Assembly (NCBI GenBank): GCA_965649055.1
Contig: CBFGJG010000004.1
Location: 7,654 to 71,653, forward strand
DNA: 64,000 nucleotides
Direction of reading: 5' to 3'
Origin: a candidate division WOR-3 bacterium
Lineage (GTDB): Bacteria; Hydrothermota; UBA3072; B12-G15
Both the position numbers and the translations under genes were made by a program. This document shows positions 2,156 to 16,826 of this stretch, piece after piece. Each line of letters begins with the position of its first letter. Position 1 is the stretch's first letter. The notes under the pieces were generated by a model. The model saw only the letters and a list, made by a program, of their open reading frames with translations, was not told the origin of the DNA and made no database searches.

Positions 2156-3709
2156 TTAAATAATCTCGATGTCTAATATTCTATCAAGTTTGAAGTTTCT
2201 TACTTCTTTTGACTTACTATCAAGACCTGAAACACCTAAAAATTTATGACCATCATATTCAAGTTCACCTACTTCGTAAGGCTCTAAAATTCTCTTTGAT
2301 TTCTCATCTGTTTTTTTTAAGTATGTTATCTCTATTTTTTTCTTGTTTTTAATTGCATTTTTAATTAATTCCATTTTTTCATCAGTTCCCATCTTCTTAT
2401 CTGCTAATTTATATTGATATCCGGTTATAAATTTGACTATTTTCTTGTCGTTAAATATGTGTCCCTTCGATACTTTTGTTTTTAATATTACACCATCTAT
2501 AGAGGTGCATCTACTTATTGCAACATAAAACTGGCCCGGTGCAAATATGCCGCTCCCAATATCTATTATTATCTTTTCGAATGTCTTTCCCTGACTTTTA
2601 TGAATGGTTATTGCCCATGCAAGGATAATAGGATACTGAATATATGTCCCTATAGTTTCTGTATCTATTTTTTTCTCTTTCTCATTGTAGTAATATCTGA
2701 ATAATTCCCATTTTACCCGATTTACTTCAACAATATTTTTATTTGTAAGTTCAACAATTATTATATCATTATCATCGTCTTCTTCAACATTTACTACTTT
2801 ACCGACACTGCCATTTATCCATCTTCCTTTGGAGTCATTGTTAACAAGCATAACCTGTGCACCTTTTTTTAAAACAATTTCTTCCGGACAGGGAAGATTT
2901 TCTTTCTTTTCCTGTATATTTTTAAATTCACCTTCTATAATACCCAAATATTTATATTCCCTTCCTTTTAATTCATTTAATCTTTTATTATTTATTTCTT
3001 CAGCCTTTTTGTTTGTAGTAACAAGATATATGTATGAATCATTTTTTGAAGGTTCAAAATCTGGTTTAAATCTTTTATTCAAATATTTAATATCTTTATC
3101 TTCAACAGTATTATTTCTTATTCTGTTCAACACTTCAATAAATTCTTGGTCTTCCTGTCTATAAATCTTCTCAAGTTCTACAAATTGCATATTTAATTCA
3201 TCAAAGATTTTAGATGAGAAAAAATATGGACTATTGTATTCCTTTTCAAAAATCTCGCTCTCTTCTTTCTTAACAACTGGTTGTAGTTGATATAAATCAC
3301 CAAAACAGACTAACTGAACACCACCAAAGGGTTTATTTTTTTTTCTTCCAAATTTTTTCATAAACTCGTGCATACAGTCAAATAGATCAGCACGAACCAT
3401 TGATATTTCATCAATAATTAATATATCAATGTTTTTATATAGTTCTGTATTTTTTATCTTTAATTTTCTTACTTTCTCAATAGTTATATCTGGTTTAAAC
3501 CTGAAAAAAGAATGTATAGTTTGACCATTTACATTCAAGGCAGCAACACCTGTTGGTGCAAGAACAACTACGTTCTTATCAGTTTTTTCCCTGAAATATT
3601 TTAAAAGTGAAGATTTTCCTGTTCCAGCCCTTCCTGTAATAAATACATTTTTGCCTTCTTCAATCAATTTTAATGCTTCTTCTATCTTTTCATTTATCTC
3701 AAAAATCAT
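2156..3709 (-). CDS. PIF1/RecD-family 5'-3' DNA helicase with a C-terminal WYL-like domain
   Basis: Motifs 'GRAGTGKSS', 'APTGVAA', 'TIHSFF', 'IDEISM', 'FGG' and 'GDLYQLQPV' are present. The C-terminal ~90 aa carry 'RNFKLDRI', typical of WYL domains. Confidence 0.85.
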   Translation of the reverse strand: MIFEINEKIEEALKLIEEGKNVFITGRAGTGKSSLLKYFREKTDKNVVVLAPTGVAALNVNGQTIHSFFRFKPDITIEKVRKLKIKNTELYKNIDILIIDEISMVRADLFDCMHEFMKKFGRKKNKPFGGVQLVCFGDLYQLQPVVKKEESEIFEKEYNSPYFFSSKIFDELNMQFVELEKIYRQEDQEFIEVLNRIRNNTVEDKDIKYLNKRFKPDFEPSKNDSYIYLVTTNKKAEEINNKRLNELKGREYKYLGIIEGEFKNIQEKKENLPCPEEIVLKKGAQVMLVNNDSKGRWINGSVGKVVNVEEDDDNDIIIVELTNKNIVEVNRVKWELFRYYYNEKEKKIDTETIGTYIQYPIILAWAITIHKSQGKTFEKIIIDIGSGIFAPGQFYVAISRCTSIDGVILKTKVSKGHIFNDKKIVKFITGYQYKLADKKMGTDEKMELIKNAIKNKKKIEITYLKKTDEKSKRILEPYEVGELEYDGHKFLGVSGLDSKSKEVRNFKLDRILDIEII

Positions 3710-5991: not shown

Positions 5992-6298
5992 TAATTTCTT
6001 CTCCTATTGTATTTTCAGTATCGTCATAGTGAAATGAAAGTCTTGGTGTGTATTTAAGTCTCATCTTTTCACCAAGCCTGTGGCTTATAAATCCGCTTGC
6101 CTTATTTAATATTTCTTCCATTCTGTATTTGTTCTCATCCTGTGATTTAAAATAGACCTTTGCATTTTTTAAATCACTCGAACAATCAACATCTGTTATT
6201 GAAATAAAATTTATTCTTGGGTCATTAATATCCTTTGCAATGATAAGAGAAATCTCTTTTCTCAATGTTACATTTATTCTATCTAATCTGTTTTTCAT
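5984..6298 (-). CDS. rbfA: Ribosome-binding factor A
   Basis: Size, the sequence 'RINVTLRKEISLII…DPRI', and its conserved position downstream of infB. Confidence 0.85.
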   Translation of the reverse strand: MKNRLDRINVTLRKEISLIIAKDINDPRINFISITDVDCSSDLKNAKVYFKSQDENKYRMEEILNKASGFISHRLGEKMRLKYTPRLSFHYDDTENTIGEEIIG

Positions 6299-6579: not shown

Positions 6580-8753
6580 AGTTCTCTTGCTTTTTCTGTT
6601 ACTTCGATTATTTCAATTATATCATCTTCTTTAAAATCTTCAAAATTCTCAACACCTATTCCGCATTCAAAGCCTTCCTGAACTTCTTTCACATCGTCTT
6701 TAAATCTTTTTAAGGACGATACTTTTGATTCACAAACAACTTCGCCATTCCTTATAACCCTGCATTTGTATCCCCTTACTACTTTACCAGATGTAACATA
6801 AGAACCTGCAATAATACCAATCTTTGGTATCTTGAATGTTGCTTTCACCTTAACTTTTCCGATAGTTTTTTCAATCTGTTCAGGCTCAAGCATTCCAGAC
6901 AATGCCTTTCGGACATCTTCAATTGCATCGTAGATTATATCATAAGTTCTTATTTCTACTCCTTCTGCCTTTGCTATTTCTTTTGTTTTAGCATTTGGTT
7001 TTACCCTGTAACCAATTATTATGGAATCAGAAGCAGATGCAAGAAGAACATCATTTTCATTTATTTCGCCAACAGCTTTATGAACTATGTTTACTTTTAT
7101 TTCATCTGTTCCAAGTTCAATAAAACTATCTGAGATTGCATCAACTGCACCCATATCTCCACCTTTAACAATAACATTGAGTTCTTTTAATTGACCAGAC
7201 ATTAAATCACTCTGTATTTTTTCAAGTGAAATCTTTTTCTTTCTTACAAGTGATTCCATTCTCTGTATCTGTGCCCTTTTCTCTGCAATCTCTCTTGCTT
7301 TCTTCTCATCTTTTATAACCTGAATAAGTTCCCCTGCGTGTGGTAATTCTTCAAAACTGCATATTTTTAAGGCAAGACCAGGGGTTGCTTCATTATAAAA
7401 TCTATTTCTTTCATCGACAATTCTTTTTATCTTTCCATAAGATATTCCTGCTACTACTGAATCACCAATCCTGAATCTTCCTTTTTTTACAACAGCAGTG
7501 CAGATATTACCAAATCCCTGTTCTTTCTTTGCTTCAATAACATAACCTTCACCGGGACCTTCAAAAGGTGCTTTTAGATTTTGATGCTCTGCAACAAGTA
7601 AGATTGATTCAAGAAGTTCATCTATACCTTCACCGGTTTTTGCAGATATGTCGACAGCAATCACATCTCCGCCATATTCCTGAACAAGCAATTTCTGGTC
7701 CGCAAGTTGTTGACGAACCATAAGTGGATTTGCGGTCGGAAGGTCTATTTTATTTATAGCAACAATTATAGGAACTCCAGCTGATTTTGCGTGATTTATA
7801 GCTTCAATGGTCTGTTCCTTAACGCCTTCAGTTGCGGACACAACAAGAATAACAATATCGGCAACTTTAGCTCCCCTTGCTCTCATCTGTGTAAATGCCT
7901 TATGACCGGGAAGGTCAATAAAGGTGATTATTTTACCGTTATATTCAACATGATAAGCACCTATCTTCTGTGTAATCTTTCCTTTCTCAAGTGCTGTGAG
8001 ATTTATGTTTTGGATATATTCAAGGAGGGTAGTCTTCCCGTGGTCTACATGACCCATAACTGTTATTACAGGTGGTTTTTCCCTGTAATCGCTGTATTCT
8101 TCTTCGGATATTTCTTTTTCAAATTCTTCATGAAGTTCAACTTTGAGGCCATAATCTTCTGCAAGAAGTGTTATTGTTTCAAAATCAAGTCTTTGATTAA
8201 TAGTAACAGGTAGACCAAGCTCAAGACATTTTAATATTATCGTGTTTGGTTCAACTTCAAGAACTTCTGCAAGTTCACTTACTGTTAGTGAAGAAGGTAT
8301 TTTTAATTTTTCTTCGTCTATCTCTATATTTTCAGCTATTTTCTTCTTTTTATATTTTTTCTTTCTCCCTTCTATCTTTGCCTTTGTCTCTTTTATTCTT
8401 TTTTCAATCTCTTTTTCATCTATCTTCTTTTTCTCTTTTCTCTTTTTCTTTTTTACAATTCCTTCCTGAGGTGCGACATATATCTCAAGTATTTCTTCTT
8501 CGGGAGGTTCTTCTGTTGTGATTACTTCTTCAATTTCTTTTGCAGGTTCTTCTTTCTTTATTTCCTTTTCTTCTTTTATTTCTTCCTTTATTTCTTTCTT
8601 CTTTTTTAGAGAATCTATTATTTTTTTCTCATCTTCTTCAGTTAGACTTCCAAGATATCCTTTAACAGAAAGACCAAGTTCGTTTATTATCTCAAGTATC
8701 TTTTCTTTTGTCAGGTTTAACTCTTTTGCAAGTATGTAGACTCTTTTTTTCAT
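6576..8753 (-). CDS. infB: Translation initiation factor IF-2
   Basis: G-domain motifs 'GHVDHGKTTLL', 'DLPGH' and 'NKID', preceded by an E/K-rich N-terminal low-complexity region. Confidence 0.97.
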   Translation of the reverse strand: MKKRVYILAKELNLTKEKILEIINELGLSVKGYLGSLTEEDEKKIIDSLKKKKEIKEEIKEEKEIKKEEPAKEIEEVITTEEPPEEEILEIYVAPQEGIVKKKKRKEKKKIDEKEIEKRIKETKAKIEGRKKKYKKKKIAENIEIDEEKLKIPSSLTVSELAEVLEVEPNTIILKCLELGLPVTINQRLDFETITLLAEDYGLKVELHEEFEKEISEEEYSDYREKPPVITVMGHVDHGKTTLLEYIQNINLTALEKGKITQKIGAYHVEYNGKIITFIDLPGHKAFTQMRARGAKVADIVILVVSATEGVKEQTIEAINHAKSAGVPIIVAINKIDLPTANPLMVRQQLADQKLLVQEYGGDVIAVDISAKTGEGIDELLESILLVAEHQNLKAPFEGPGEGYVIEAKKEQGFGNICTAVVKKGRFRIGDSVVAGISYGKIKRIVDERNRFYNEATPGLALKICSFEELPHAGELIQVIKDEKKAREIAEKRAQIQRMESLVRKKKISLEKIQSDLMSGQLKELNVIVKGGDMGAVDAISDSFIELGTDEIKVNIVHKAVGEINENDVLLASASDSIIIGYRVKPNAKTKEIAKAEGVEIRTYDIIYDAIEDVRKALSGMLEPEQIEKTIGKVKVKATFKIPKIGIIAGSYVTSGKVVRGYKCRVIRNGEVVCESKVSSLKRFKDDVKEVQEGFECGIGVENFEDFKEDDIIEIIEVTEKAREL

Positions 8754-10039
8754 TATTCACCTAAATTCAAAGCCTTATGTATCTCCATAAATATCTTATC
8801 AACTGTTTTTTTACCAAGTCCCGGTAATTTTATGAGTTCTTCTTCACTTGAAGACATAATGTCTTTTGCTGTTTTAAATCCATGTTTCTTTAAAATCTCA
8901 ACAACCTTCTCGTTTAAACCAAGTTCTTCAATCTTCAATTTTTTTCTCTTAGCTTCTTCTACTTCCTTGTGATGTTCAGACTGTGAAACAATCTGGATAT
9001 TATATCCTGTTATTTCATTCGCAAGTTTAATATTTGATTCATCTTTTCCTATTGCAGTTGAAACCTGATCATCCGGGACAACACATATTGCTTTATTACC
9101 TGGCTTTTTTATCATGACTTTTAAAACCTTTGCAAGTGAAAGAGATCTTCCTATGAACACTACCGGGTCAGCACTCCATGGAATAATATCTATTTTTTCA
9201 CCACTTAATTCCTTTGATATTCCCTGAATCCTTGTTCCCCTTGGTCCAACACATGCACCGAGCGGGTCAATCTTTTCATTCTTTGAGTAAACTGCAATTT
9301 TGCATCTAACGCCCGGGATCCTTACAATTTTCTTTATCTCAACTTCGTTTTTAAGTATCTCGGGAATTTCAAACTCAAGGAGTTTTGCTACAAATTGCTT
9401 GCTTGTCCTTGTAAGATATACAACAGGTCCTTTTATCTTTACCTTTTCCCTGTCAGAAGGTCTTTCTTCTACCATCTTTACAATTGCTTTTATAGTCTTA
9501 CCTTTCTTAACAATCTCATTTGGAATCATATCTTCTTTATCAATGAAGGCTTCTATGTCTACAAGTTTCACATAACATCCGGCAGCATAATGATTGGTAA
9601 TTGTTCCTGTTACAAGTTCCCCGATTTTATTCTGATATTTCTTAAGCATAATTTCTCTTTCAGATTCCTTAAATTTCTGTATGAGATTATTTTTAACCTG
9701 ATTTATTGTGTATCTGCTGAATAGTTCCGAGACAGGGTAAGGATAATATATTTTATCACCAACCTTTGCGTCAGGATTTATATTCAATGCATCTTCAAGT
9801 GAAATTTCTTCAATCTCGTTTTTTACATCTGTTTTGTTTCTCACCACCTTCTTTTCGAGATAAAGCTTCACTTCACCTGTTGATTCGGAAATTTCACATA
9901 TAAAACCTTCTTTTTTGTTAAATTTAAGTTCTGCAGCTTTAAGGATTGAATCCTTTAAAGCCGAGACAACAAATTGTTTATCAAATCCCTTTTCCCTTGC
10001 AAGTTCTGTTAACATCTCTACAACTTCTCTATTTATCAT
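8753..10039 (-). CDS. nusA: Transcription termination/antitermination factor NusA
   Basis: NusA N-terminal domain, S1 and KH domains ('GPRGTRIQ…'), and the conserved nusA–infB synteny. Confidence 0.95.
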
Positions 10040-10310
10040 AGTGCCTCCTATTTATCCCAGGTGAAGATACTTCAAGTGTGTATCTTGTTTTTATTAAGTC
10101 TTCAACATCAAGCCTTGTGGATAGTTCCTTTGATATCTTTACACAATCATCAAGGGTAATTCCACCCGGCTTATCAACAAAAACCCTTAAAATTTTTACT
10201 GGATATTTCATCTCAATTTCTATAAGTTCATATTTTTCATCTTCAAAAATGCTCAATGTTTCAAGCACAATTTTCTTTATTTTTTCTTTTAATTCTTCAA
10301 TTCCTTCCAT
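10029..10310 (-). CDS. rimP: Ribosome maturation factor RimP, short form (N-terminal domain only)
   Basis: 'LDVEDLI…[12 protein letters not shown]' matches the RimP N-domain. The ORF ends inside the nusA start overlap and has no C-terminal Sm-like domain. Confidence 0.75.
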
Positions 10311-11989
10311 ATTTTTTCAACACTTTCCTTTACTTTTTCTGGTTCTGTTTTTATTATTTCCCTGTTATCCCTTCTCGAGATTTCAACCTTTCCTTCTTTC
10401 ATAACTTTTGGACCAATCGTAATCCTGATTGGAATTCCAATCAAATCTGCATCTTTAAATTTAGCACCAGGCCCAATGTCTCTGTCGTCTAAGAGTATTT
10501 CGTATTTCTCTCCTAATATTTTATAAAGATTTTCGGAAATTTCAAGTGATTTATTATCTTTTATATCAACAAGGGTTATTATTGCATCAAAAGGGGATAT
10601 GGAAACAGGCCATATTATTCCATCTTTGTCGTTGTAAATTTCAATTGCAGTAGCCATAATTCTTTCAACACCTATACCATAACTTCCCATCACTATTGGT
10701 TTTTGTCTTCCATCTTTATCTGTGAAATTTGCACCTATTGCTTCGGAATACTTTCTTCCGAGTTTAAAAATATGTCCAAGCTCGATTGTGTTTTTTAATA
10801 TTATTTTTGAAGAACATTTCTTACATATATCACCTTCTTTTACATTTCTTATATCAACAAATTTTAATGGCTTAAAATCTCTTCCAATCTCAATTCCCTG
10901 AAGGTGATAATCATCTTTATTTGCGCCGCTCACAAGGTTTCTTCCATCTCTTAAACTTATATCAACATACGAAGGGATATTTAATCCGACAGGACTTATA
11001 TAACCTTTAGTGGCACCTGTAAATTTTTTAATCTCATCATCACTTGCCGGTCTTGAATTCTTAAATAATTGCAAGAATTTGTTTTCATTTACTTCGTAAT
11101 CACCCCTTATAAGGACAAAGAAAGGATTCCCGTTTTCATCAATATATAATAAACTTTTCATAAGCATATATTCAGGGACTGAAAGAAACTGAGATACTTC
11201 TTTTACAGAACCTGTGATGGGTGTATGAATTAATTTAAGGGAAGAACTTTCACCAAAATCCACAGGCAAAGGCTCTGTTTCAGCAACATCAATATTTGAA
11301 GAATATCCACATTTTTCACAAAAGACAATGCTGTCTTCGCCTGCTTTTGACGGAACCATAAATTCGTGAGATTGTGAACCACCCATAATTCCGCTTGATG
11401 CTGAAACAACTATAGTATTTAATTTAACCCGACTGAAAATTTTTTCATAGGCTTCATAATGAAGTTTATAACTTTTGTCAAGACCTTCTTCATTAATATC
11501 AAAAGAATAGGAATCCATCATTATAAATGTTCTTGCCCTTAAAACTCCACCCCTTGGCCTTAACTCGTCCCTGTATTTTATCTGGATTTGATACCACATT
11601 TGCGGAAGGTCATTATAGGATTTGATATCAATCCTTGCAAGCTCGGTCATTATTTCTTCGTGTGTTGGAGCAAGTGCATAATCCCTTTGTTTTCTGTCTT
11701 TTAAACGAAACATCTCGTCTCCGTATTCTTCCCATCTCCCTGTTTTTTCCCAGAGTTCTTTCGGGGTTAATGCAGGAAGCAATAGTTCCTGTGCCCCAAT
11801 TCTATCCATTTCTTCCCTTATTATATTTATGATTTTCTTAAGAACCTTCCATCCTAAAGGAAGATAAACATATACACCACTTGATAATAATTTTATAAAA
11901 CCACCCCTTAAAAGTAAAATATGGCTTATATTTGTTGCTTCTTTCGGTGTTTCTTTAAGGGTTGGTATGTAGCTTTCAGTCCATTTCAT
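10289..11989 (-). CDS. proS: Prolyl-tRNA synthetase (bacterial type with editing insertion)
   Basis: Class II aaRS motifs, N-terminal '[13 protein letters not shown]', and a C-terminal anticodon-binding domain. Confidence 0.95.
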
Positions 11990-12049
11990 AAATATAAAAT
12001 AACAAAATGTTATAATATGTCAATAAAAATTTAAACTTAAAAAAAATCC

Positions 12050-12078
12050 TTGACAAAATTTTAAAAATCATTTATAAT
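12050..12078 (+). promoter_or_regulatory. Consensus sigma70 promoter (TTGACA-17nt-TATAAT) reading rightwards into the non-coding repeat region
   Basis: Exact -35 TTGACA at 12050-12055, a 17-nt spacer, and exact -10 TATAAT at 12073-12078. Confidence 0.6.
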
Positions 12079-12200
12079 AAAAATACAAAATAAAAATTAA
12101 ATTCGCTCTTTGAAATTAGAATAGTTTTTTATACCGGATTAAGGGATAATTTATTACAAATTACTAACTTTGTAATAATTTTCCTGAACGACGCCTGAAG

Positions 12201-12341
12201 TTTTCCACATTTTTTCCACAACGAGATAACAAGTTATTGATAATAATTGAGTTATAGCGAAAATTAAAAAAAATTTCAAACTCATCGTCGTTGTGGTTCA
12301 AAATGAATGAGTTATGAAAAATGTGGATAAAATGTGGATAA
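12201..12341. promoter_or_regulatory. Cluster of four DnaA boxes in inverted arrangement (candidate oriC / DnaA-regulated element)
   Basis: Two TTTTCCACA boxes at 12201-12209 and 12212-12220, one mismatch from TTATCCACA. Two perfect TGTGGATAA boxes (the reverse complement of TTATCCACA) at 12322-12330 and 12333-12341. An inverted repeat ccacaacga/tcgttgtgg lies between them, and an extreme-AT tract lies at 12000-12120. Confidence 0.55.
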
Positions 12342-12405
12342 TTTTTAGGTCTGTGTCGGAAATGCCCTTATAAGTTATTGGTGTTAAATAACTTTCAAGG
12401 GGTGC

Positions 12406-12705
12406 TGTAGCAATCGAACTCCCGTAAGATCGGGATTGCAACCGCATCGATGAAATCGCTCAACTTCATAGCGTTCCTCCTTTGTAGCAATCGAACTCCC
12501 GTAAGATCGGGCTCGAAATAATGGGGACTAGGGATTAGGCATTAGGGACTGGTATATAATAAGTTTATATTTCGATAAAGAATAGATGTGAGAATATAAA
12601 TAAAATGCTTACAAGACTTTATAAGTCTATTAAATAACTAATCCCCAGTCACGAGTCCCCAGTCCCTAAAACACTCCCGTAATATCGGGCTCGAAATAAT
12701 GGGGA
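12406..12705 (+). repeat. Short direct-repeat family with hairpin potential (CCCG-N6-CGGG). Two identical 29-nt copies are separated by a 48-nt unique segment, followed by a third 33-nt partial copy.
   Basis: TGTAGCAATCGAACTCCCGTAAGATCGGG occurs at 12406-12434 and 12483-12511. ACTCCCGTAA[G/T]ATCGGGCTCGAAATAATGGGGA occurs at 12494-12527 and 12673-12705. GC-rich inverted repeats (…TTAGGGACTGG / CCAGTCCCTAA…) flank a ~110-bp AT-rich loop at 12523-12681. Confidence 0.5.
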
Positions 12706-12730
12706 TTAGAGACTTGTGGAATATGGAATA

Positions 12731-12856
12731 ATGTTAGTAGATGATTTGGATGTTTTTAAATTATCACATGGAATTTTATTAAAGGTTTATGAGCTAACGA
12801 GAGAATTTCAAAAAGATAAGATATTTAATTTAACAATGCAATTAAGACGGATATAA
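12731..12856 (+). pseudogene. Truncated four-helix-bundle protein gene (PF05635 / '23S rRNA intervening-sequence protein' / DGR Avd-like family), with a possible further decayed remnant up to ~12930
   Basis: The 41-aa ORF 'MLVDDLDVFKLSHGILLKVYELTREFQKDKIFNLTMQLRRI*' matches the N-terminal half of that family (…LxVWkkA.eLv.eIYklT.kFPkeEkFgLTSQlRRAAvSi…). A stop codon cuts it off where the family continues. Downstream, 'IEGGQKKIERQLLI' may be a frame-shifted remainder. Confidence 0.45.
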
Positions 12857-13205
12857 AGTTCTATATCTATAAATTAAATTGAGGGTGGGCAAAAAAAGAT
12901 TGAAAGACAATTGTTAATAATTTTTTTGATAATTTGAATCCTTATATAAACATTTTATAAATTTCAATCAGGTATTATTAATAGTCTGGTTAAACTATTT
13001 TCCTTAGAGTGTTTTACAATTTATAAACTCATCTGGAATTTCATTATTCAAAATATCAAATAAGCCATTTATTAGAAGATTCACATTAGCAATATTAATT
13101 TGGTTTCTTTCTTATATACAGATTAACAAAAAGGTGAATGGGCAGATTTTTAATGGTTAAGATAGCAATATATTTTGGGAAAATTAAAAAATAACAAAGA
13201 TTTAT

Positions 13206-13234
13206 TTGACAAAAATTTTTTTAACTTTACAATA
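13206..13234 (+). promoter_or_regulatory. Near-consensus sigma70 promoter for the C25 propeptide/peptidase genes
   Basis: TTGACA at 13206-13211, a 16-17 nt spacer, then TACAAT/ACAATA. An AGGAGG RBS sits 7 nt before the ATG at 13256. Confidence 0.5.
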
Positions 13235-13255
13235 ATAAATAAACAGGAGGTATTT

Positions 13256-13843
13256 ATGATTCTCTTATTCGTTTTAATAAATACAGATTTCACCTATATT
13301 TTAAAGTGTTCAGAACCTGAAATTATCTCTGAAAATGGATATGTGAAACTATCTTTGACTGATTATAATTATTTAAGAATTCCTGGTAAACCTGAAATGC
13401 CGTTTAAACCAATTGTATTTCTTCTGCCACCTGATGCAATCTTTAAAACAATTTCTTTTGAATTACTTGATTCGACAATAATAGACCTTCATAACCTTAT
13501 ATTTCCTGCTCAAAGATATATACCATTTTTTAAAGATAGTAAGGTAGAAAGGGTTGAACCTGATAAAAATGTATACAGTTCGAATGAACCTTATCCCGGG
13601 ATATTAATAAAGAGTTTCGGAGAAAGCAGGAAAGGCGTCTTCAGACTTTTGACAATTAATATCTATCCAATCCAGTATATACCAGCGCTTAACAGGTTAA
13701 TTATATACGATATCAAGTTAAGAATTGAATATGAAAACTCTGACAAATTCGTGAAGATAAACAGAAATCAATTTGAATTCCATAAGAAGGGTGTTGAGAA
13801 GTTAGTAATAAATCCAGAAATGATTGATTATTACAGGAGGTAA
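13256..13843 (+). CDS. Stand-alone peptidase-C25 (gingipain-type) N-terminal propeptide-domain protein with signal peptide
   Basis: The start is placed at the Met with a strong RBS; the ORF track begins at 13175. 'ENGYVKLSL…IPGKPEMPFKPIVFLLPPDA…FPAQ…YPG…RLLTINIYPIQYIPA' follows the Propeptide_C25 pattern (G.PxLP…LPP.A…P…YP…R…L.I.P.qY.P). Confidence 0.65.
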   Translation: MILLFVLINTDFTYILKCSEPEIISENGYVKLSLTDYNYLRIPGKPEMPFKPIVFLLPPDAIFKTISFELLDSTIIDLHNLIFPAQRYIPFFKDSKVERVEPDKNVYSSNEPYPGILIKSFGESRKGVFRLLTINIYPIQYIPALNRLIIYDIKLRIEYENSDKFVKINRNQFEFHKKGVEKLVINPEMIDYYRR

Positions 13844-13845
13844 GG

Positions 13846-16719
13846 ATGAAAAGATTATTTCCGATATTTTTTATAAGCCTTTTCATATATCCACAAAGTT
13901 TAAAGATACTATATGAACCATTAGAGGGTGTTCCACTTTACCCGGCAAAAACCACACCTTTAATGAAAGAGATTAATGTCTTAGAAACAAGGCAAAGCCC
14001 TGTTAATTTTTATAGAACATCTTCTCATCATCCTGATAAAATTGGACATACAGATTTTAAAGAAATATACGGAAGACCTGTTGTAAATTACCCATTAGAG
14101 TTTTTAGATTCAAAGGTATCATACGATACACTCTCATACTGGAATACTGCTTCAACAAATTTCTTTTACTGGAATCAGCCGGATAACTATGGTGATATAA
14201 ATTATTCTGTCCGCTTCACACCCATTAACAATGGAACATTGAAAAGTGCGATATTCTGGTTCTATAATCTTGTAGGTTCTGGTAATATAAGGATTCATGT
14301 ATGGAATGATAATTGGGGTTATCCTGGAACAGAACTCGGGTATGTTGATTTTCCAACATCAGGTATAGCCGGCTGGCCTTATGGAACTATAATAGATCTT
14401 TCATCTTTAGGGATAAATGTTACAGCAGGGAACGATTTTTATGTTGGATATTCTTTATTATCAGGTGTCAGCACCTTAGGACTCGTTTATGATACATTTG
14501 GTCTTGCACCTGAAAGATGCTATGATTATTGGCCTACCTTTAGTATGTGGGAAACATCCGACTGGATTCATGATAATATTACATGGCTTATTGAGGCAGT
14601 TGTTGAGGTTGGTGCTGGTGGACAACCTAATCTCACATATTACACACCAACGGGATGGGATGGACCGATAGTTCCATCATCTGTATCAGGGACACACACA
14701 ACAGGTCCAAATCTTCAGGGCGGTGCTACGACATATATAGACTGGGCTATTATAAATAATGGAAGTGATACTGCACTGGCAACATTCTATATTTATCTTT
14801 ATTCAGATGGAATACCAATAGGAGGATGGTATACTGATTCACTTCCACCTAACTATTATACTTATGTTGAAGATTGGACATATACATTCTCATCAGGGAA
14901 TCATACACTTGGAATATTTGCAGATTCAACAAATACGATTTCTGAAAGCAATGAGACAGACAATAAATATTCGCAGGTCTTCTCATGGGGTGGAGGTGGT
15001 GGAGGAGGAATTTCAGGTGTGAAATATATTATTATCACAAGTCCGAGTTTTGTTTCATACTTTGAACCACTTGCATGGTGGAAGACCAAAAAAGGTGTCC
15101 CTGCAAAGATTGTAACTACTGATTACATATATGCAAATTATTCGGGAACTGATAACCAACAGAAGATAAGAAATTATATATCTGCACAGGCTGATTCAGG
15201 TGTATTGTATATACTCCTTGGTGGTCAGATGGACTGGGAACATGGTGAAGGTATAGTTCCAAGAAGGGATGTTTGGTGCATGCAAAGTGGAGGTGGAGGA
15301 TATCCAGATGAAGATACTATCCCAACAGATATGTATTATTCAAATCTTGATGGGAACTGGAATGGTGACGGGGATAATGTTTATGGTGAGATGGGTGATA
15401 ATGTAGACCTTTATTCAGATATTGCAATAGGAAGGGCACCTGTAAAAAATACATCACAGGTTACAAATTTTGTGAATAAGGTCTTAACTTATGAAAAGAA
15501 TCCACCAACAAGTTATATTAAGAAAATACTTCTTCCATCTGTGAAGCTTTTTGATTATTATTATCATGGAGTAAATTATTACGGATATGTTGTGAATAAT
15601 GCAATCTCAAATATAACACCAGCAGGCTGGCAGGATTCAAAACTTGAAGATAACAATAATTCGCAGTCATGGAATTTAAGACAGGCTATAAAAGATTCAC
15701 TTAATAATGGTTTCCATTTCTGCCATTTTGCAGCACACGGTGATGAATACGGACATTACTATCTCTTAGGAAACACTGTATACAATTATTCAGATGCACA
15801 AACAATGAACAATGGAACAAAATATTCAATCATAAATGCAATTTCCTGTTTTACAGGTGCTGTTGATGAGGCAGGTTCATCTGCAAGTTATGATTGTATC
15901 GCAGAACACTATGTGAACAGGGTTTCAAATGGGGCTGTTGCAACTATTATGAATACAAGATATGGACTTGCTTATCCACCGAGTATGGGACCATCAGAGG
16001 TTCTTGATACAACATTCTATCGCTTGATATTTCTTGAAGGGTTTTATCACCTTGGTGAAGCACATATGGAGGCAAGGGATAGATGGGCAAGCTCTGCACA
16101 ATCAGATCAGGGATTCAGATGGTGTGTTTATGAGTTAACACTTTTTGGTGACCCTGAAATGCCTATATGGACAGATACACCACAGAATATGAATGTATCT
16201 ATAAATCTTGATTCACTCATTGTTGGACAGAACAATAATCTTATAGTAACAGTCCAGACTGCGAAGGCACCTGTGCAGAATGCCCTTGTCTGTCTTGCAA
16301 CAAAAAACTATGATGTATATGATACATTATTAACAAATTCAAGTGGCCAGGCAAATTTCACTGTGAATCCTTCAGCTGAAGAGACAATATTTATAACTGT
16401 AACAAAACATAATTACATACCTTATGAGACATACAGACTTTCAAAAATCTCCACAGGTATCTCTGATGATACGGGAAAACTAAACTTCTATCTTTCTTTA
16501 AATTCCGGAAAAGGAATAAATGTGAATTATGATATTCCAGAAAAAGGCGAAGTGAAAATATCTGTTTTAGATATTGTTGGAAGGAAGAAAGAGATTTACA
16601 GAAATATTGTAGAAAAAGGAAAACATAATATTGTATATAAACCAGAAAAATTCGGTGTTTATTTCATTATGCTTGAATATAAGGAAAAATCTATTCTTAA
16701 GAAGATTGTTTATTTTTAA
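13846..16719 (+). CDS. Secreted multidomain cysteine peptidase, family C25 (gingipain-like). Domains in order: signal peptide, N-terminal beta/CARDB-like region, poly-Gly linker, C25 catalytic domain, Ig-like domain, T9SS C-terminal sorting domain.
   Basis: Catalytic-domain hallmarks 'YIIITSPSFVSYFEPLAWWKTKKG', His in 'AAHGDEYGHYY' and Cys in 'AISCFTG'. A G7 linker is present. The C-terminal ~80 aa, 'KGEVKISVLDIVGRK…YFIMLEY…KIVYF', is typical of a Por/T9SS CTD. Confidence 0.8.
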   Translation: MKRLFPIFFISLFIYPQSLKILYEPLEGVPLYPAKTTPLMKEINVLETRQSPVNFYRTSSHHPDKIGHTDFKEIYGRPVVNYPLEFLDSKVSYDTLSYWNTASTNFFYWNQPDNYGDINYSVRFTPINNGTLKSAIFWFYNLVGSGNIRIHVWNDNWGYPGTELGYVDFPTSGIAGWPYGTIIDLSSLGINVTAGNDFYVGYSLLSGVSTLGLVYDTFGLAPERCYDYWPTFSMWETSDWIHDNITWLIEAVVEVGAGGQPNLTYYTPTGWDGPIVPSSVSGTHTTGPNLQGGATTYIDWAIINNGSDTALATFYIYLYSDGIPIGGWYTDSLPPNYYTYVEDWTYTFSSGNHTLGIFADSTNTISESNETDNKYSQVFSWGGGGGGGISGVKYIIITSPSFVSYFEPLAWWKTKKGVPAKIVTTDYIYANYSGTDNQQKIRNYISAQADSGVLYILLGGQMDWEHGEGIVPRRDVWCMQSGGGGYPDEDTIPTDMYYSNLDGNWNGDGDNVYGEMGDNVDLYSDIAIGRAPVKNTSQVTNFVNKVLTYEKNPPTSYIKKILLPSVKLFDYYYHGVNYYGYVVNNAISNITPAGWQDSKLEDNNNSQSWNLRQAIKDSLNNGFHFCHFAAHGDEYGHYYLLGNTVYNYSDAQTMNNGTKYSIINAISCFTGAVDEAGSSASYDCIAEHYVNRVSNGAVATIMNTRYGLAYPPSMGPSEVLDTTFYRLIFLEGFYHLGEAHMEARDRWASSAQSDQGFRWCVYELTLFGDPEMPIWTDTPQNMNVSINLDSLIVGQNNNLIVTVQTAKAPVQNALVCLATKNYDVYDTLLTNSSGQANFTVNPSAEETIFITVTKHNYIPYETYRLSKISTGISDDTGKLNFYLSLNSGKGINVNYDIPEKGEVKISVLDIVGRKKEIYRNIVEKGKHNIVYKPEKFGVYFIMLEYKEKSILKKIVYF

Positions 16720-16797
16720 TGGTATTTTTTAAGTTTAAAAAGTAAAATTTTTAAAATGCTCAAAACATAGAATTTTACAGAATTTTAAAAAAAATAC

Positions 16798-16826
16798 TTG
16801 ACAAAATGCAAGATTTTATATATATT
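16798..16826 (+). promoter_or_regulatory. Near-consensus sigma70 promoter of the HU gene
   Basis: TTGACA at 16798-16803, a 17-nt spacer, TATATT at 16821-16826. A GGAGGTG RBS sits upstream of a TTG/GTG start. Confidence 0.55.

Follow-up and report, generated by a model that had tools for sequence, protein, structure and literature searches.

Architecture of the gene-free stretch

The 64,000-nucleotide window analysed here, part of contig CBFGJG010000004.1 from a candidate division WOR-3 bacterium with an AT-rich genome, contains a gene-free stretch of 1.19 kb (11990-13174) between proS and two open reading frames (ORFs), one C25-propeptide-like and the other a C25 peptidase. This stretch houses all of the relic features: a one-spacer mini-array of clustered regularly interspaced short palindromic repeats (CRISPR), followed by two pieces of a four-helix-bundle (4HB) protein gene, termed remnant A (C-terminal part) and remnant B (N-terminal part), and by heptamer repeats that form inverted arms around remnant A. 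We read the two pieces as the probable remains of a cassette resembling an intervening sequence (IVS). The features are, from left to right:

12407-12442, plus strand: CRISPR repeat R1, intact, 36 nt, GTAGCAATCGAACTCCCGTAAGATCGGGATTGCAAC
12443-12483, plus strand: single spacer of 41 nt, a length that fits the 37-44 nt which the repeat spacing implies for spacers on the related metagenome contig L011
12484-12519, plus strand: terminal, degenerate CRISPR repeat R2, as in R1 for 28 nt, after which the final 8 nt are CTCGAAAT where R1 has ATTGCAAC
12523-12552, plus strand: 5′ arm of remnant A, GGGGACT AGGGATT AGGCATT AGGGACT GG (TRF period 7, 3.6 copies)
12563-12637, plus strand: C-terminal 4HB remnant, ending in SIKNRCENINKMLTRLYKSIK and a TAA stop codon at 12635-37
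12638-12669, plus strand: 3′ arm of remnant A, inverted heptamers of the CCCCAGT type, CTAATCCCCAGTCACGAGTCCCCAGTCCCTAA
12673-12712, plus strand: duplicate of 12495-12534 at 93% identity, the short 5′ flank of remnant B
12731-12937, plus strand: remnant B, the N-terminal 4HB piece, with codons 1-60 recognizable, TAA at 12854 and 12875, and TGA at 12935

Two complementary pieces of a four-helix-bundle gene

Remnant B begins with an ORF at 12716/12731-12856 on the plus strand, the coding part of which comprises 41 codons (12731-12853). The initial annotation had taken this ORF for the N-terminal part of a PF05635/TIGR02436 gene and proposed a profile search against PF05635; the assignment is borne out by Pfam, phmmer, TIGR02436 and a subfamily profile. 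The 41-residue product matches PF05635 with an E-value of 3.5e-6 and 27.6 bits over profile positions 2-37 of 106; alone, the ORF misses the gathering score of 33.8, as it contains no more than a third of the domain. When 1.84 billion representatives were searched exhaustively with phmmer, 35 matches at E<1e-3 were obtained (best 1.3e-10), all of which belong to one subfamily that starts with ‘VEDLDVFKLAH’. A profile of this subfamily, derived from 103 full-length relatives, aligns at its positions 2-60 with remnant B and gives 59 bits. The cut-off of NCBIfam TIGR02436, 24 bits, is exceeded by the 68-residue read-through sequence (31.8 bits). When used as the query of a word-indexed protein search, the fragment retrieved nothing but itself.

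As had been noticed before, the ORF ends exactly where the family alignment places the segment ‘RRAAxS(V/I)PxN(L/I)xEG’. The ‘IEGGQKK’ that follows had been assigned to a shifted frame, which is wrong: it lies in the frame of the ORF and is reached through two TAA stops. The continuation reads ‘SSISIN’ after the first stop (12854-56) and ‘IEGGQKKIERQ’ after the second (12875-77), and the frame ends at a TGA at 12935-37. The family-invariant residues S44, N48, E51 and G52 are still in register in this read-through; remnant B has decayed by nonsense mutation, with no frameshift. In its layout, piece B (12701-12907) consists of a short 5′ arm, 17 nt, an ATG and about 60 N-terminal codons. From 12907 to 13175, up to the promoter of the peptidase, no recognizable C-terminal half of a 4HB gene was found, nor was a 3′ arm found downstream of remnant B.

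Remnant A supplies the other end of the gene. Piece A (12523-12669) consists of the 5′ arm, the last 24 codons, a stop and the 3′ arm; the 86-nt loop between the arms carries the coding tail and the TAA, upon which the 3′ arm follows immediately. The loop corresponds to positions 93-116 of the subfamily profile, up to the final position of the model, and when scored alone reaches 11.9 bits, a value that none of 3000 loop shuffles attained. Pieces A and B thus hold complementary parts of a 4HB gene in the same orientation. An intact ORF of the expected kind (about 115-125 residues, four helices) is absent; only profile positions 2-60 and 93-116 are present, in two pieces.

The two arms of remnant A (12523-12552 and 12638-12669) form a predicted duplex of -34.2 kcal/mol, which 0 of 300 shuffles matched, and the hairpin of remnant A as a whole reaches -42.9 kcal/mol (z = -5.0). 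The arms thereby provide the terminal inverted repeats, able to form a long stem, that characterize the IVS of 23S rRNA. The two gene fragments are separated by the 40-nt duplicate at 12673-12712, in which 25 nt from the 3′ end of the terminal CRISPR repeat are joined to the first two heptamers of the 5′ arm. The ‘GC-rich hairpin repeats’ described upstream of the ORF in the initial annotation are real and far beyond chance (ACTCCCGTAAGATCGGG occurs in 3 copies, against 0.03 expected), but they are two different things, namely CRISPR repeats and inverted heptamer arms. The CRISPR nature of half of these repeats had been overlooked, as had the C-terminal fragment at 12563-12637.

Inverted tandem-repeat arms flank intact relatives

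The same architecture was found around intact members of the subfamily. The reference set comprises six of them (L006, L013, L014, L015, L022 and L023), which come from a Planctomycetaceae metagenome-assembled genome (MAG), a candidate division WOR-3 MAG and four other contigs, and span several phyla. In all six, mutually complementary arms of tandem repeats stand no more than about 75 nt from the ORF on either side; the repeat units, of 6-7 nt, are CGTGTCC-like in four cases, TTAGCAT in one and GGTGAGA in one. The arm duplexes have z-scores of -3.3 to -8.8, with 0-1 of 300 shuffles as good. In the window, complementary arms stand on both sides of remnant A, and remnant B retains a short 5′ arm only. 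Inverted tandem-repeat arms are a hallmark flank of this 4HB subfamily, and they support the earlier proposal that the stretch is the carcass of a small inserted element.

The intact cassettes have no obvious promoter and lie inside or just after host transcription units. The 4HB gene is located between wzm and wzt in L013, between a Fer4 gene and a CCG-domain gene in L015 (the gaps measure 33 and 47 nt), after a C25 peptidase gene in L014, and before proS in L006. Neither a CRISPR array nor a reverse transcriptase (RT) was found in the flanks of any of the six.

Two known kinds of element resemble this cassette. Protein-coding intervening sequences with such stems are found in the 23S rRNA of Leptospira and Coxiella. 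The relic shares with them the sequence family (TIGR02436/PF05635 23S rRNA IVS protein; 59 bits with the subfamily profile) and inverted repeats around an ORF that can form a long stem. It differs in being outside an rRNA gene, with proS and a C25 peptidase at its flanks, in being broken into two fragments, and in having heptamer arms. The short tandemly repeated repetitive (STRR) sequences of cyanobacteria are heptamers, of which CCCCAGT is one classical unit. Like the arms, STRR sequences are intergenic, tandem and capable of forming hairpins; the host of the window arms, however, is a relative of WOR-3/Stahlbacteria, and no link between STRR sequences and 4HB genes was found in the searchable literature. 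No description of the arms-plus-4HB architecture was found there, and nothing relevant on links of TIGR02436, ‘S23 ribosomal protein’ or heptanucleotide/STRR repeats to the family; for PF05635, the literature search gave a single paper, which concerns diversity-generating retroelements (DGRs) and compares the family with the accessory variability determinant (Avd). The element is a new member of a known protein family, and the cassette architecture appears to be general.

Several observations on the relatives deserve mention. The cassette of the Planctomycetaceae MAG (L006, 3813-4287) has GGTGAGA/GGTTAGA arms and is placed directly upstream of proS, and its gene seems disrupted too. Just downstream of the same proS (6077-6147) lies a hairpin without an ORF that is built from the same heptamers. 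The adjacency to proS common to this contig and the window is probably a coincidence. In L014 (1-4375), the AT-rich relative P0146 comes right after a 1335-residue C25 peptidase gene, whereas the remnant in the window precedes such a gene; C25 genes seem common in these lineages, and this shared adjacency is probably due to chance. A WOR-3 MAG (L003) has two complementary period-7 arrays with ATTGCAA/TTTGCAA units, 1.7 kb apart (7675-7712 and 9418-9453), which enclose further short tandem repeats and an ORF of 236 residues for a putative RadC-like protein. Heptamer arms may thus enclose cargo beyond 4HB genes. The nearest database relatives are often fragments, fusions or frameshifted (P0124, P0127, P0131, P0137, P0151 and P0153), and P0124 consists of two N-terminal halves in succession, which suggests that decay and tandem partial duplication are frequent in this gene family.

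Relation to diversity-generating retroelements

PF05635 is the fold family of Avd, and the initial annotation had proposed that the locus may be the carcass of a DGR. According to this proposal, the fragment would descend from an Avd whose RT and template repeat have disappeared, and diversification would have acted on the neighbouring C25 peptidase. The relic and Avd (NF033474; bAvd PF22296) do share a fold superfamily, and the intact relatives give faint matches to the bAvd/Avd models. The equivalog threshold is far off, however: the read-through sequence has no match to NF033474, for which the cut-off is 80 bits, and the intact relatives reach 19.9-23.2 bits. In the whole window, no RT was detected, either among the 50 ORFs scanned with Pfam (all of which are housekeeping) or in a six-frame scan for RT motifs. 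A repeat search of the same 64 kb returned no long imperfect direct repeat pair of the template/variable type; direct-repeat families of a non-trivial kind occur only at 12406-12712, where they correspond to the CRISPR and cassette repeats.

The genomic contexts point in the same direction. The nearest relatives reside in housekeeping operons without an RT, and none of the subfamily was found in viral contigs, so that the phage context of Avd is missing as well. The neighbouring peptidase had been described as a protein of the kind that DGRs diversify. It does match the Ig-like C-terminal domain of C25 peptidases, weakly and below the Pfam cut-off (E=7.4e-4), but the only domains above threshold are C25 and CARDB, and it has no features of a DGR target; this peptidase is unrelated to the element. 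Taken together, the DGR proposal is not supported, and we consider it highly improbable. The locus also serves as a warning that an Avd-like fragment is not always the relic of a DGR.

The CRISPR mini-array and its relatives

In the mini-array (12407-12519), a 41-nt spacer separates an intact 36-nt repeat from a terminal repeat that is degenerate. R1 and R2 are 77 nt apart from start to start and are the only two repeats, in addition to one partial third. R1 is predicted to fold into a hairpin of -10.1 kcal/mol and matches Rfam CRISPR-DR36 over the full length, though weakly (14.5 bits, E=4.4). A scan with a degenerate pattern derived from R1 and R2 revealed related arrays on two JGI metagenome contigs, Ga0190351_1000274 (L011) and Ga0190349_1000324 (L012), with 26 and 34 matches, respectively, and 35 on L012 when mismatches are allowed. 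The repeats on these contigs are spaced 73-80 nt, and differ from R1 at 3-4 of 36 positions (identity at 32-33/36); the spacers are of similar length. Ahead of the arrays stand cas1 and cas2, and the surroundings contain RAMP, CARF and Card1 genes as well as a metallo-beta-lactamase/beta-CASP-CARF fusion. This cas neighbourhood is a type III locus. On L012, the segment 7096-11899 encodes Card1, a protein that combines a DnaJ domain with a glycine-rich segment, and a metallo-beta-lactamase/beta-CASP protein of 837 residues fused to CARF (APE2256).

Compared to these arrays, the one in the window has a single spacer and a non-homologous leader (no homology was found between its leader and that of L012), and no cas genes were found within 64 kb by tblastn with the Cas proteins of L012 or by the Pfam scans of the 50 ORFs. 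On this basis, 12407-12519 is best described as an orphan one-spacer mini-array. No protospacer of the spacer was found in viral contigs or phage records, where only chance matches of 22 nt appeared, and the repeat core is absent from the GTDB species-representative genomes and from viral contigs.

The trailer end of the L012 array has the same layout as the window. The terminal repeat is likewise degenerate at its 3′ end, and a heptamer-arm hairpin follows. The segment 6905-7005 on this contig contains the degenerate end of the 35-repeat array, a small palindrome (GCACGCAAGTGCGTGC) and then the hairpin. The 5′ arm of the latter reads AAGTGGG AAGTGAG AAATAAG AAGTAAG (TRF period 7), and the 3′ arm, TTTCCACTTCCGCATTCCCACTT, is complementary to it; the hairpin reaches -39.6 kcal/mol (z = -5.1). 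The hairpin in the window holds a 4HB gene fragment, whereas that of L012 does not: no 4HB remnants were found in the ORF-less hairpins of either L012 or L006.

This resemblance raises the possibility of targeted insertion, in which heptamer-armed hairpins, with or without a 4HB ORF, would seek out CRISPR repeats or the ends of arrays and leave the degenerate terminal repeat as an insertion scar. Two independent arrays, those of the window and L012, each have a heptamer-arm hairpin directly after them, and in both the repeat is broken within its 3′ part. The break points differ, however, being after CGGG in the window and after CGGGATT in L012, and the arm sequences are unrelated (GGGGACT and AAGTGGG). 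The missing repeat end, ATTGCAAC, was sought beyond the cassette and not found on its far side or elsewhere nearby. Moreover, there are two cases only, the six intact cassettes occupy unrelated intergenic sites, and degeneracy of the terminal repeat is common in CRISPR arrays anyway. Targeted insertion is therefore an unlikely explanation.

The direct contact between the 4HB relic and the terminal repeat could also mean that the gene was once an accessory gene of a CRISPR-Cas locus, of which a mini-array and a pseudogene are left. A precedent exists in the acquisition-linked system UAS-8, described as ‘23S rRNA IVP + DUF2325 + RT sometimes’ (Altae-Tran et al. 2023, PMC10910872), in which, as in the window, a PF05635-family gene stands beside CRISPR components. 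Unlike UAS-8, the window has no DUF2325, cas1-cas2 or RT, and the relic is located at the trailer end rather than in an adaptation module; DUF2325, cas1 and cas2 are all absent among the scanned ORFs of the window. L011 and L012, the closest CRISPR relatives, have no 4HB gene in 13.7 kb. The relatives of the 4HB gene are not linked to CRISPR, as none of the six intact ones (0/6) has an array in its flanks, and the relic carries the generic cassette arms that are seen in non-CRISPR contexts too. A former accessory gene thus seems improbable.

We favour a chance juxtaposition of cassette and array, since the cassettes occupy many intergenic sites. A broader idea, which we regard as doubtful, is that inverted-heptamer hairpin cassettes, with or without a 4HB ORF, form a widespread, promoter-less, IVS-like mobile class that prefers non-coding DNA which is structured or highly transcribed, the 3′ portion of CRISPR repeats being one example. 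If so, such cassettes would cap or truncate arrays, and the window and L012 would represent two independent captures.

The remnant might instead be functional in its present form. It could encode a working 41-residue peptide, or its RNA could be structured, for instance as a hairpin for termination or processing where the array ends. The hairpin is very stable (z = -5.0), an ORF-less hairpin occupies the equivalent place on L012, and a consensus promoter is located upstream. However, neither strand of 11900-13300 yielded a site resembling an intrinsic terminator, folding of half a four-helix bundle is improbable, and the downstream sequence has drifted towards AT and contains multiple stops. 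We hold a present function to be distinctly improbable; the cassette is dead in this genome, and the locus is a pseudogene beside a vestigial CRISPR array, with activity of any part unlikely.

Probable origin and decay of the cassette

Two Logan contigs from organisms at 81-85% DNA identity to the window were available for comparison. On the one that carries proS (81% identical), homology ends at 12029; the intergenic region upstream is 171 bp long, and the next gene is a different one. On the one that carries the C25 genes (83-85% identical), homology begins at 13276, and the upstream neighbours are different. Both of these nearest relatives lack 12030-13270, so that the stretch is specific to this genome, and it coincides with a break in synteny. 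A comparison with related genomes had been proposed in the initial annotation as a way to an intact version of the locus; the two nearest lack the whole stretch, and offer neither an intact version nor a clean empty site. The proS loci of WOR-3, Stahlbacteria and others were tried as empty sites and rejected as too distant (43-61% protein identity). The 1.1-kb intergenic region has no match in plasmids.

We conclude, with a probability of about 0.7, that a 4HB cassette of IVS-like type, devoid of a promoter and now decayed, lies at the trailer end of the orphan CRISPR array, and that the locus is not the remnant of a DGR. An intact cassette of this kind, without a promoter of its own and seated in or after host units, would be transcribed by read-through, which in the window would come from the side of the CRISPR leader, perhaps from the promoter at 12050. 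ORF-bearing intervening sequences of 23S rRNA are cut out by RNase III. By analogy, the two arms of the cassette would pair in the RNA into a long stem enclosing the ORF, in the geometry of a protein-coding 23S rRNA IVS, and this stem might be processed by RNase III.

The decay of the cassette can be reconstructed as follows. The cassette would have come to lie directly after the terminal CRISPR repeat, and the unit of half a repeat plus cassette would then have been duplicated in tandem. Copy A would subsequently have lost codons 1 to about 92 and kept its arms, the last 24 codons and the stop, and copy B would have gained two TAA stops and lost its 3′ half and 3′ arm, with about 60 N-terminal codons remaining. 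We infer this order, duplication followed by deletions, as the simplest one.

Several points weigh against these conclusions. The loci of the relatives differ on both sides of the stretch, and a clean empty site that would prove insertion is lacking. The C-terminal fragment is short, and its score is non-significant in the frame of the whole window (-0.5 bits) and significant only locally; the case for it rests on the local test together with its exact placement before the 3′ arm. As the ‘array’ has two repeats only, it might derive from a source of any kind. The order of events is a reconstruction, and the pieces could also stem from two independent cassettes or from another rearrangement; both read-through and RNase III processing are carried over from the rRNA IVS. 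Finally, the analysis covers 64 kb, and other parts of the genome may contain cas genes, an RT or intact cassettes.

The locus itself is an ordinary relic. Its wider interest lies in part in the cassette architecture and in a possible tie to the ends of CRISPR arrays. Together with the six intact relatives, it indicates that PF05635 genes outside DGRs travel as ORFs between inverted tandem-heptamer arms, which gives a handle on two minor open questions, the role of the abundant four-helix-bundle genes and the spread of IVS-like elements.

Neighbouring genes and further features

The genes and sites around the relic are:

10289-11989, minus strand: proS, left neighbour of the gene-free stretch
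12050-12078, plus strand: sigma-70-type consensus promoter (TTGACA, 17 nt, TATAAT; 12/12), aimed into the mini-array
12201 and 12212, plus strand: two DnaA boxes, TTTTCCACA, with 11-nt spacing
12322 and 12333, minus strand: two perfect DnaA boxes, TTATCCACA, with 11-nt spacing
from 13175, plus strand: C25-propeptide-like ORF, right neighbour, with its own signal-peptide-like start and a stop at 13841-43
from an ATG at 13846, plus strand: C25 peptidase of 957 residues (Pfam); both C25 ORFs lie within 13175-16719

The ProS of the host has 55-61% identity to its counterparts in candidate division WOR-3, ‘Stahlbacteria’ and one unclassified MAG; among 5.8 billion proteins, the closest ProS reaches 83%. 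Separate ORFs encode the C25 propeptide-like domain and the peptidase, each with a signal-peptide-like start. In the 83-85%-identical relative (L009), both C25 genes have suffered large deletions, and their products are 121 and 267 residues long. Across the 64-kb window, no Rfam family reached its gathering score, and neither rRNA nor tRNA was found.

The promoter at 12050-12078 is a candidate source of the read-through towards the mini-array and cassette. It is part of a segment (12037-12078) in which a perfect sigma-70 consensus is combined with an A-rich upstream block and no ORF follows downstream; the product could be the mini-array or an unannotated RNA. A block 78% identical to 12037-12078, with the UP-like and -35 parts, stands at 16785-16824 ahead of the HU gene.

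Four DnaA boxes are clustered at 12201-12341, in the position of the presumed CRISPR leader. The two pairs point towards each other, with about 100 nt of AT-rich DNA between them, and four boxes within 150 bp appeared in 0 of 200 block shuffles. Genes diverge from about 12 kb, where the cumulative GC skew also has its minimum, yet the skew follows the gene strand throughout the window. The cluster may be an oriC or a DnaA-controlled promoter.

Further away, the minus strand of the window encodes, at 2156-3709, a PIF1-like helicase fused to a C-terminal WYL domain, a pairing that is frequent in defence or regulatory contexts.

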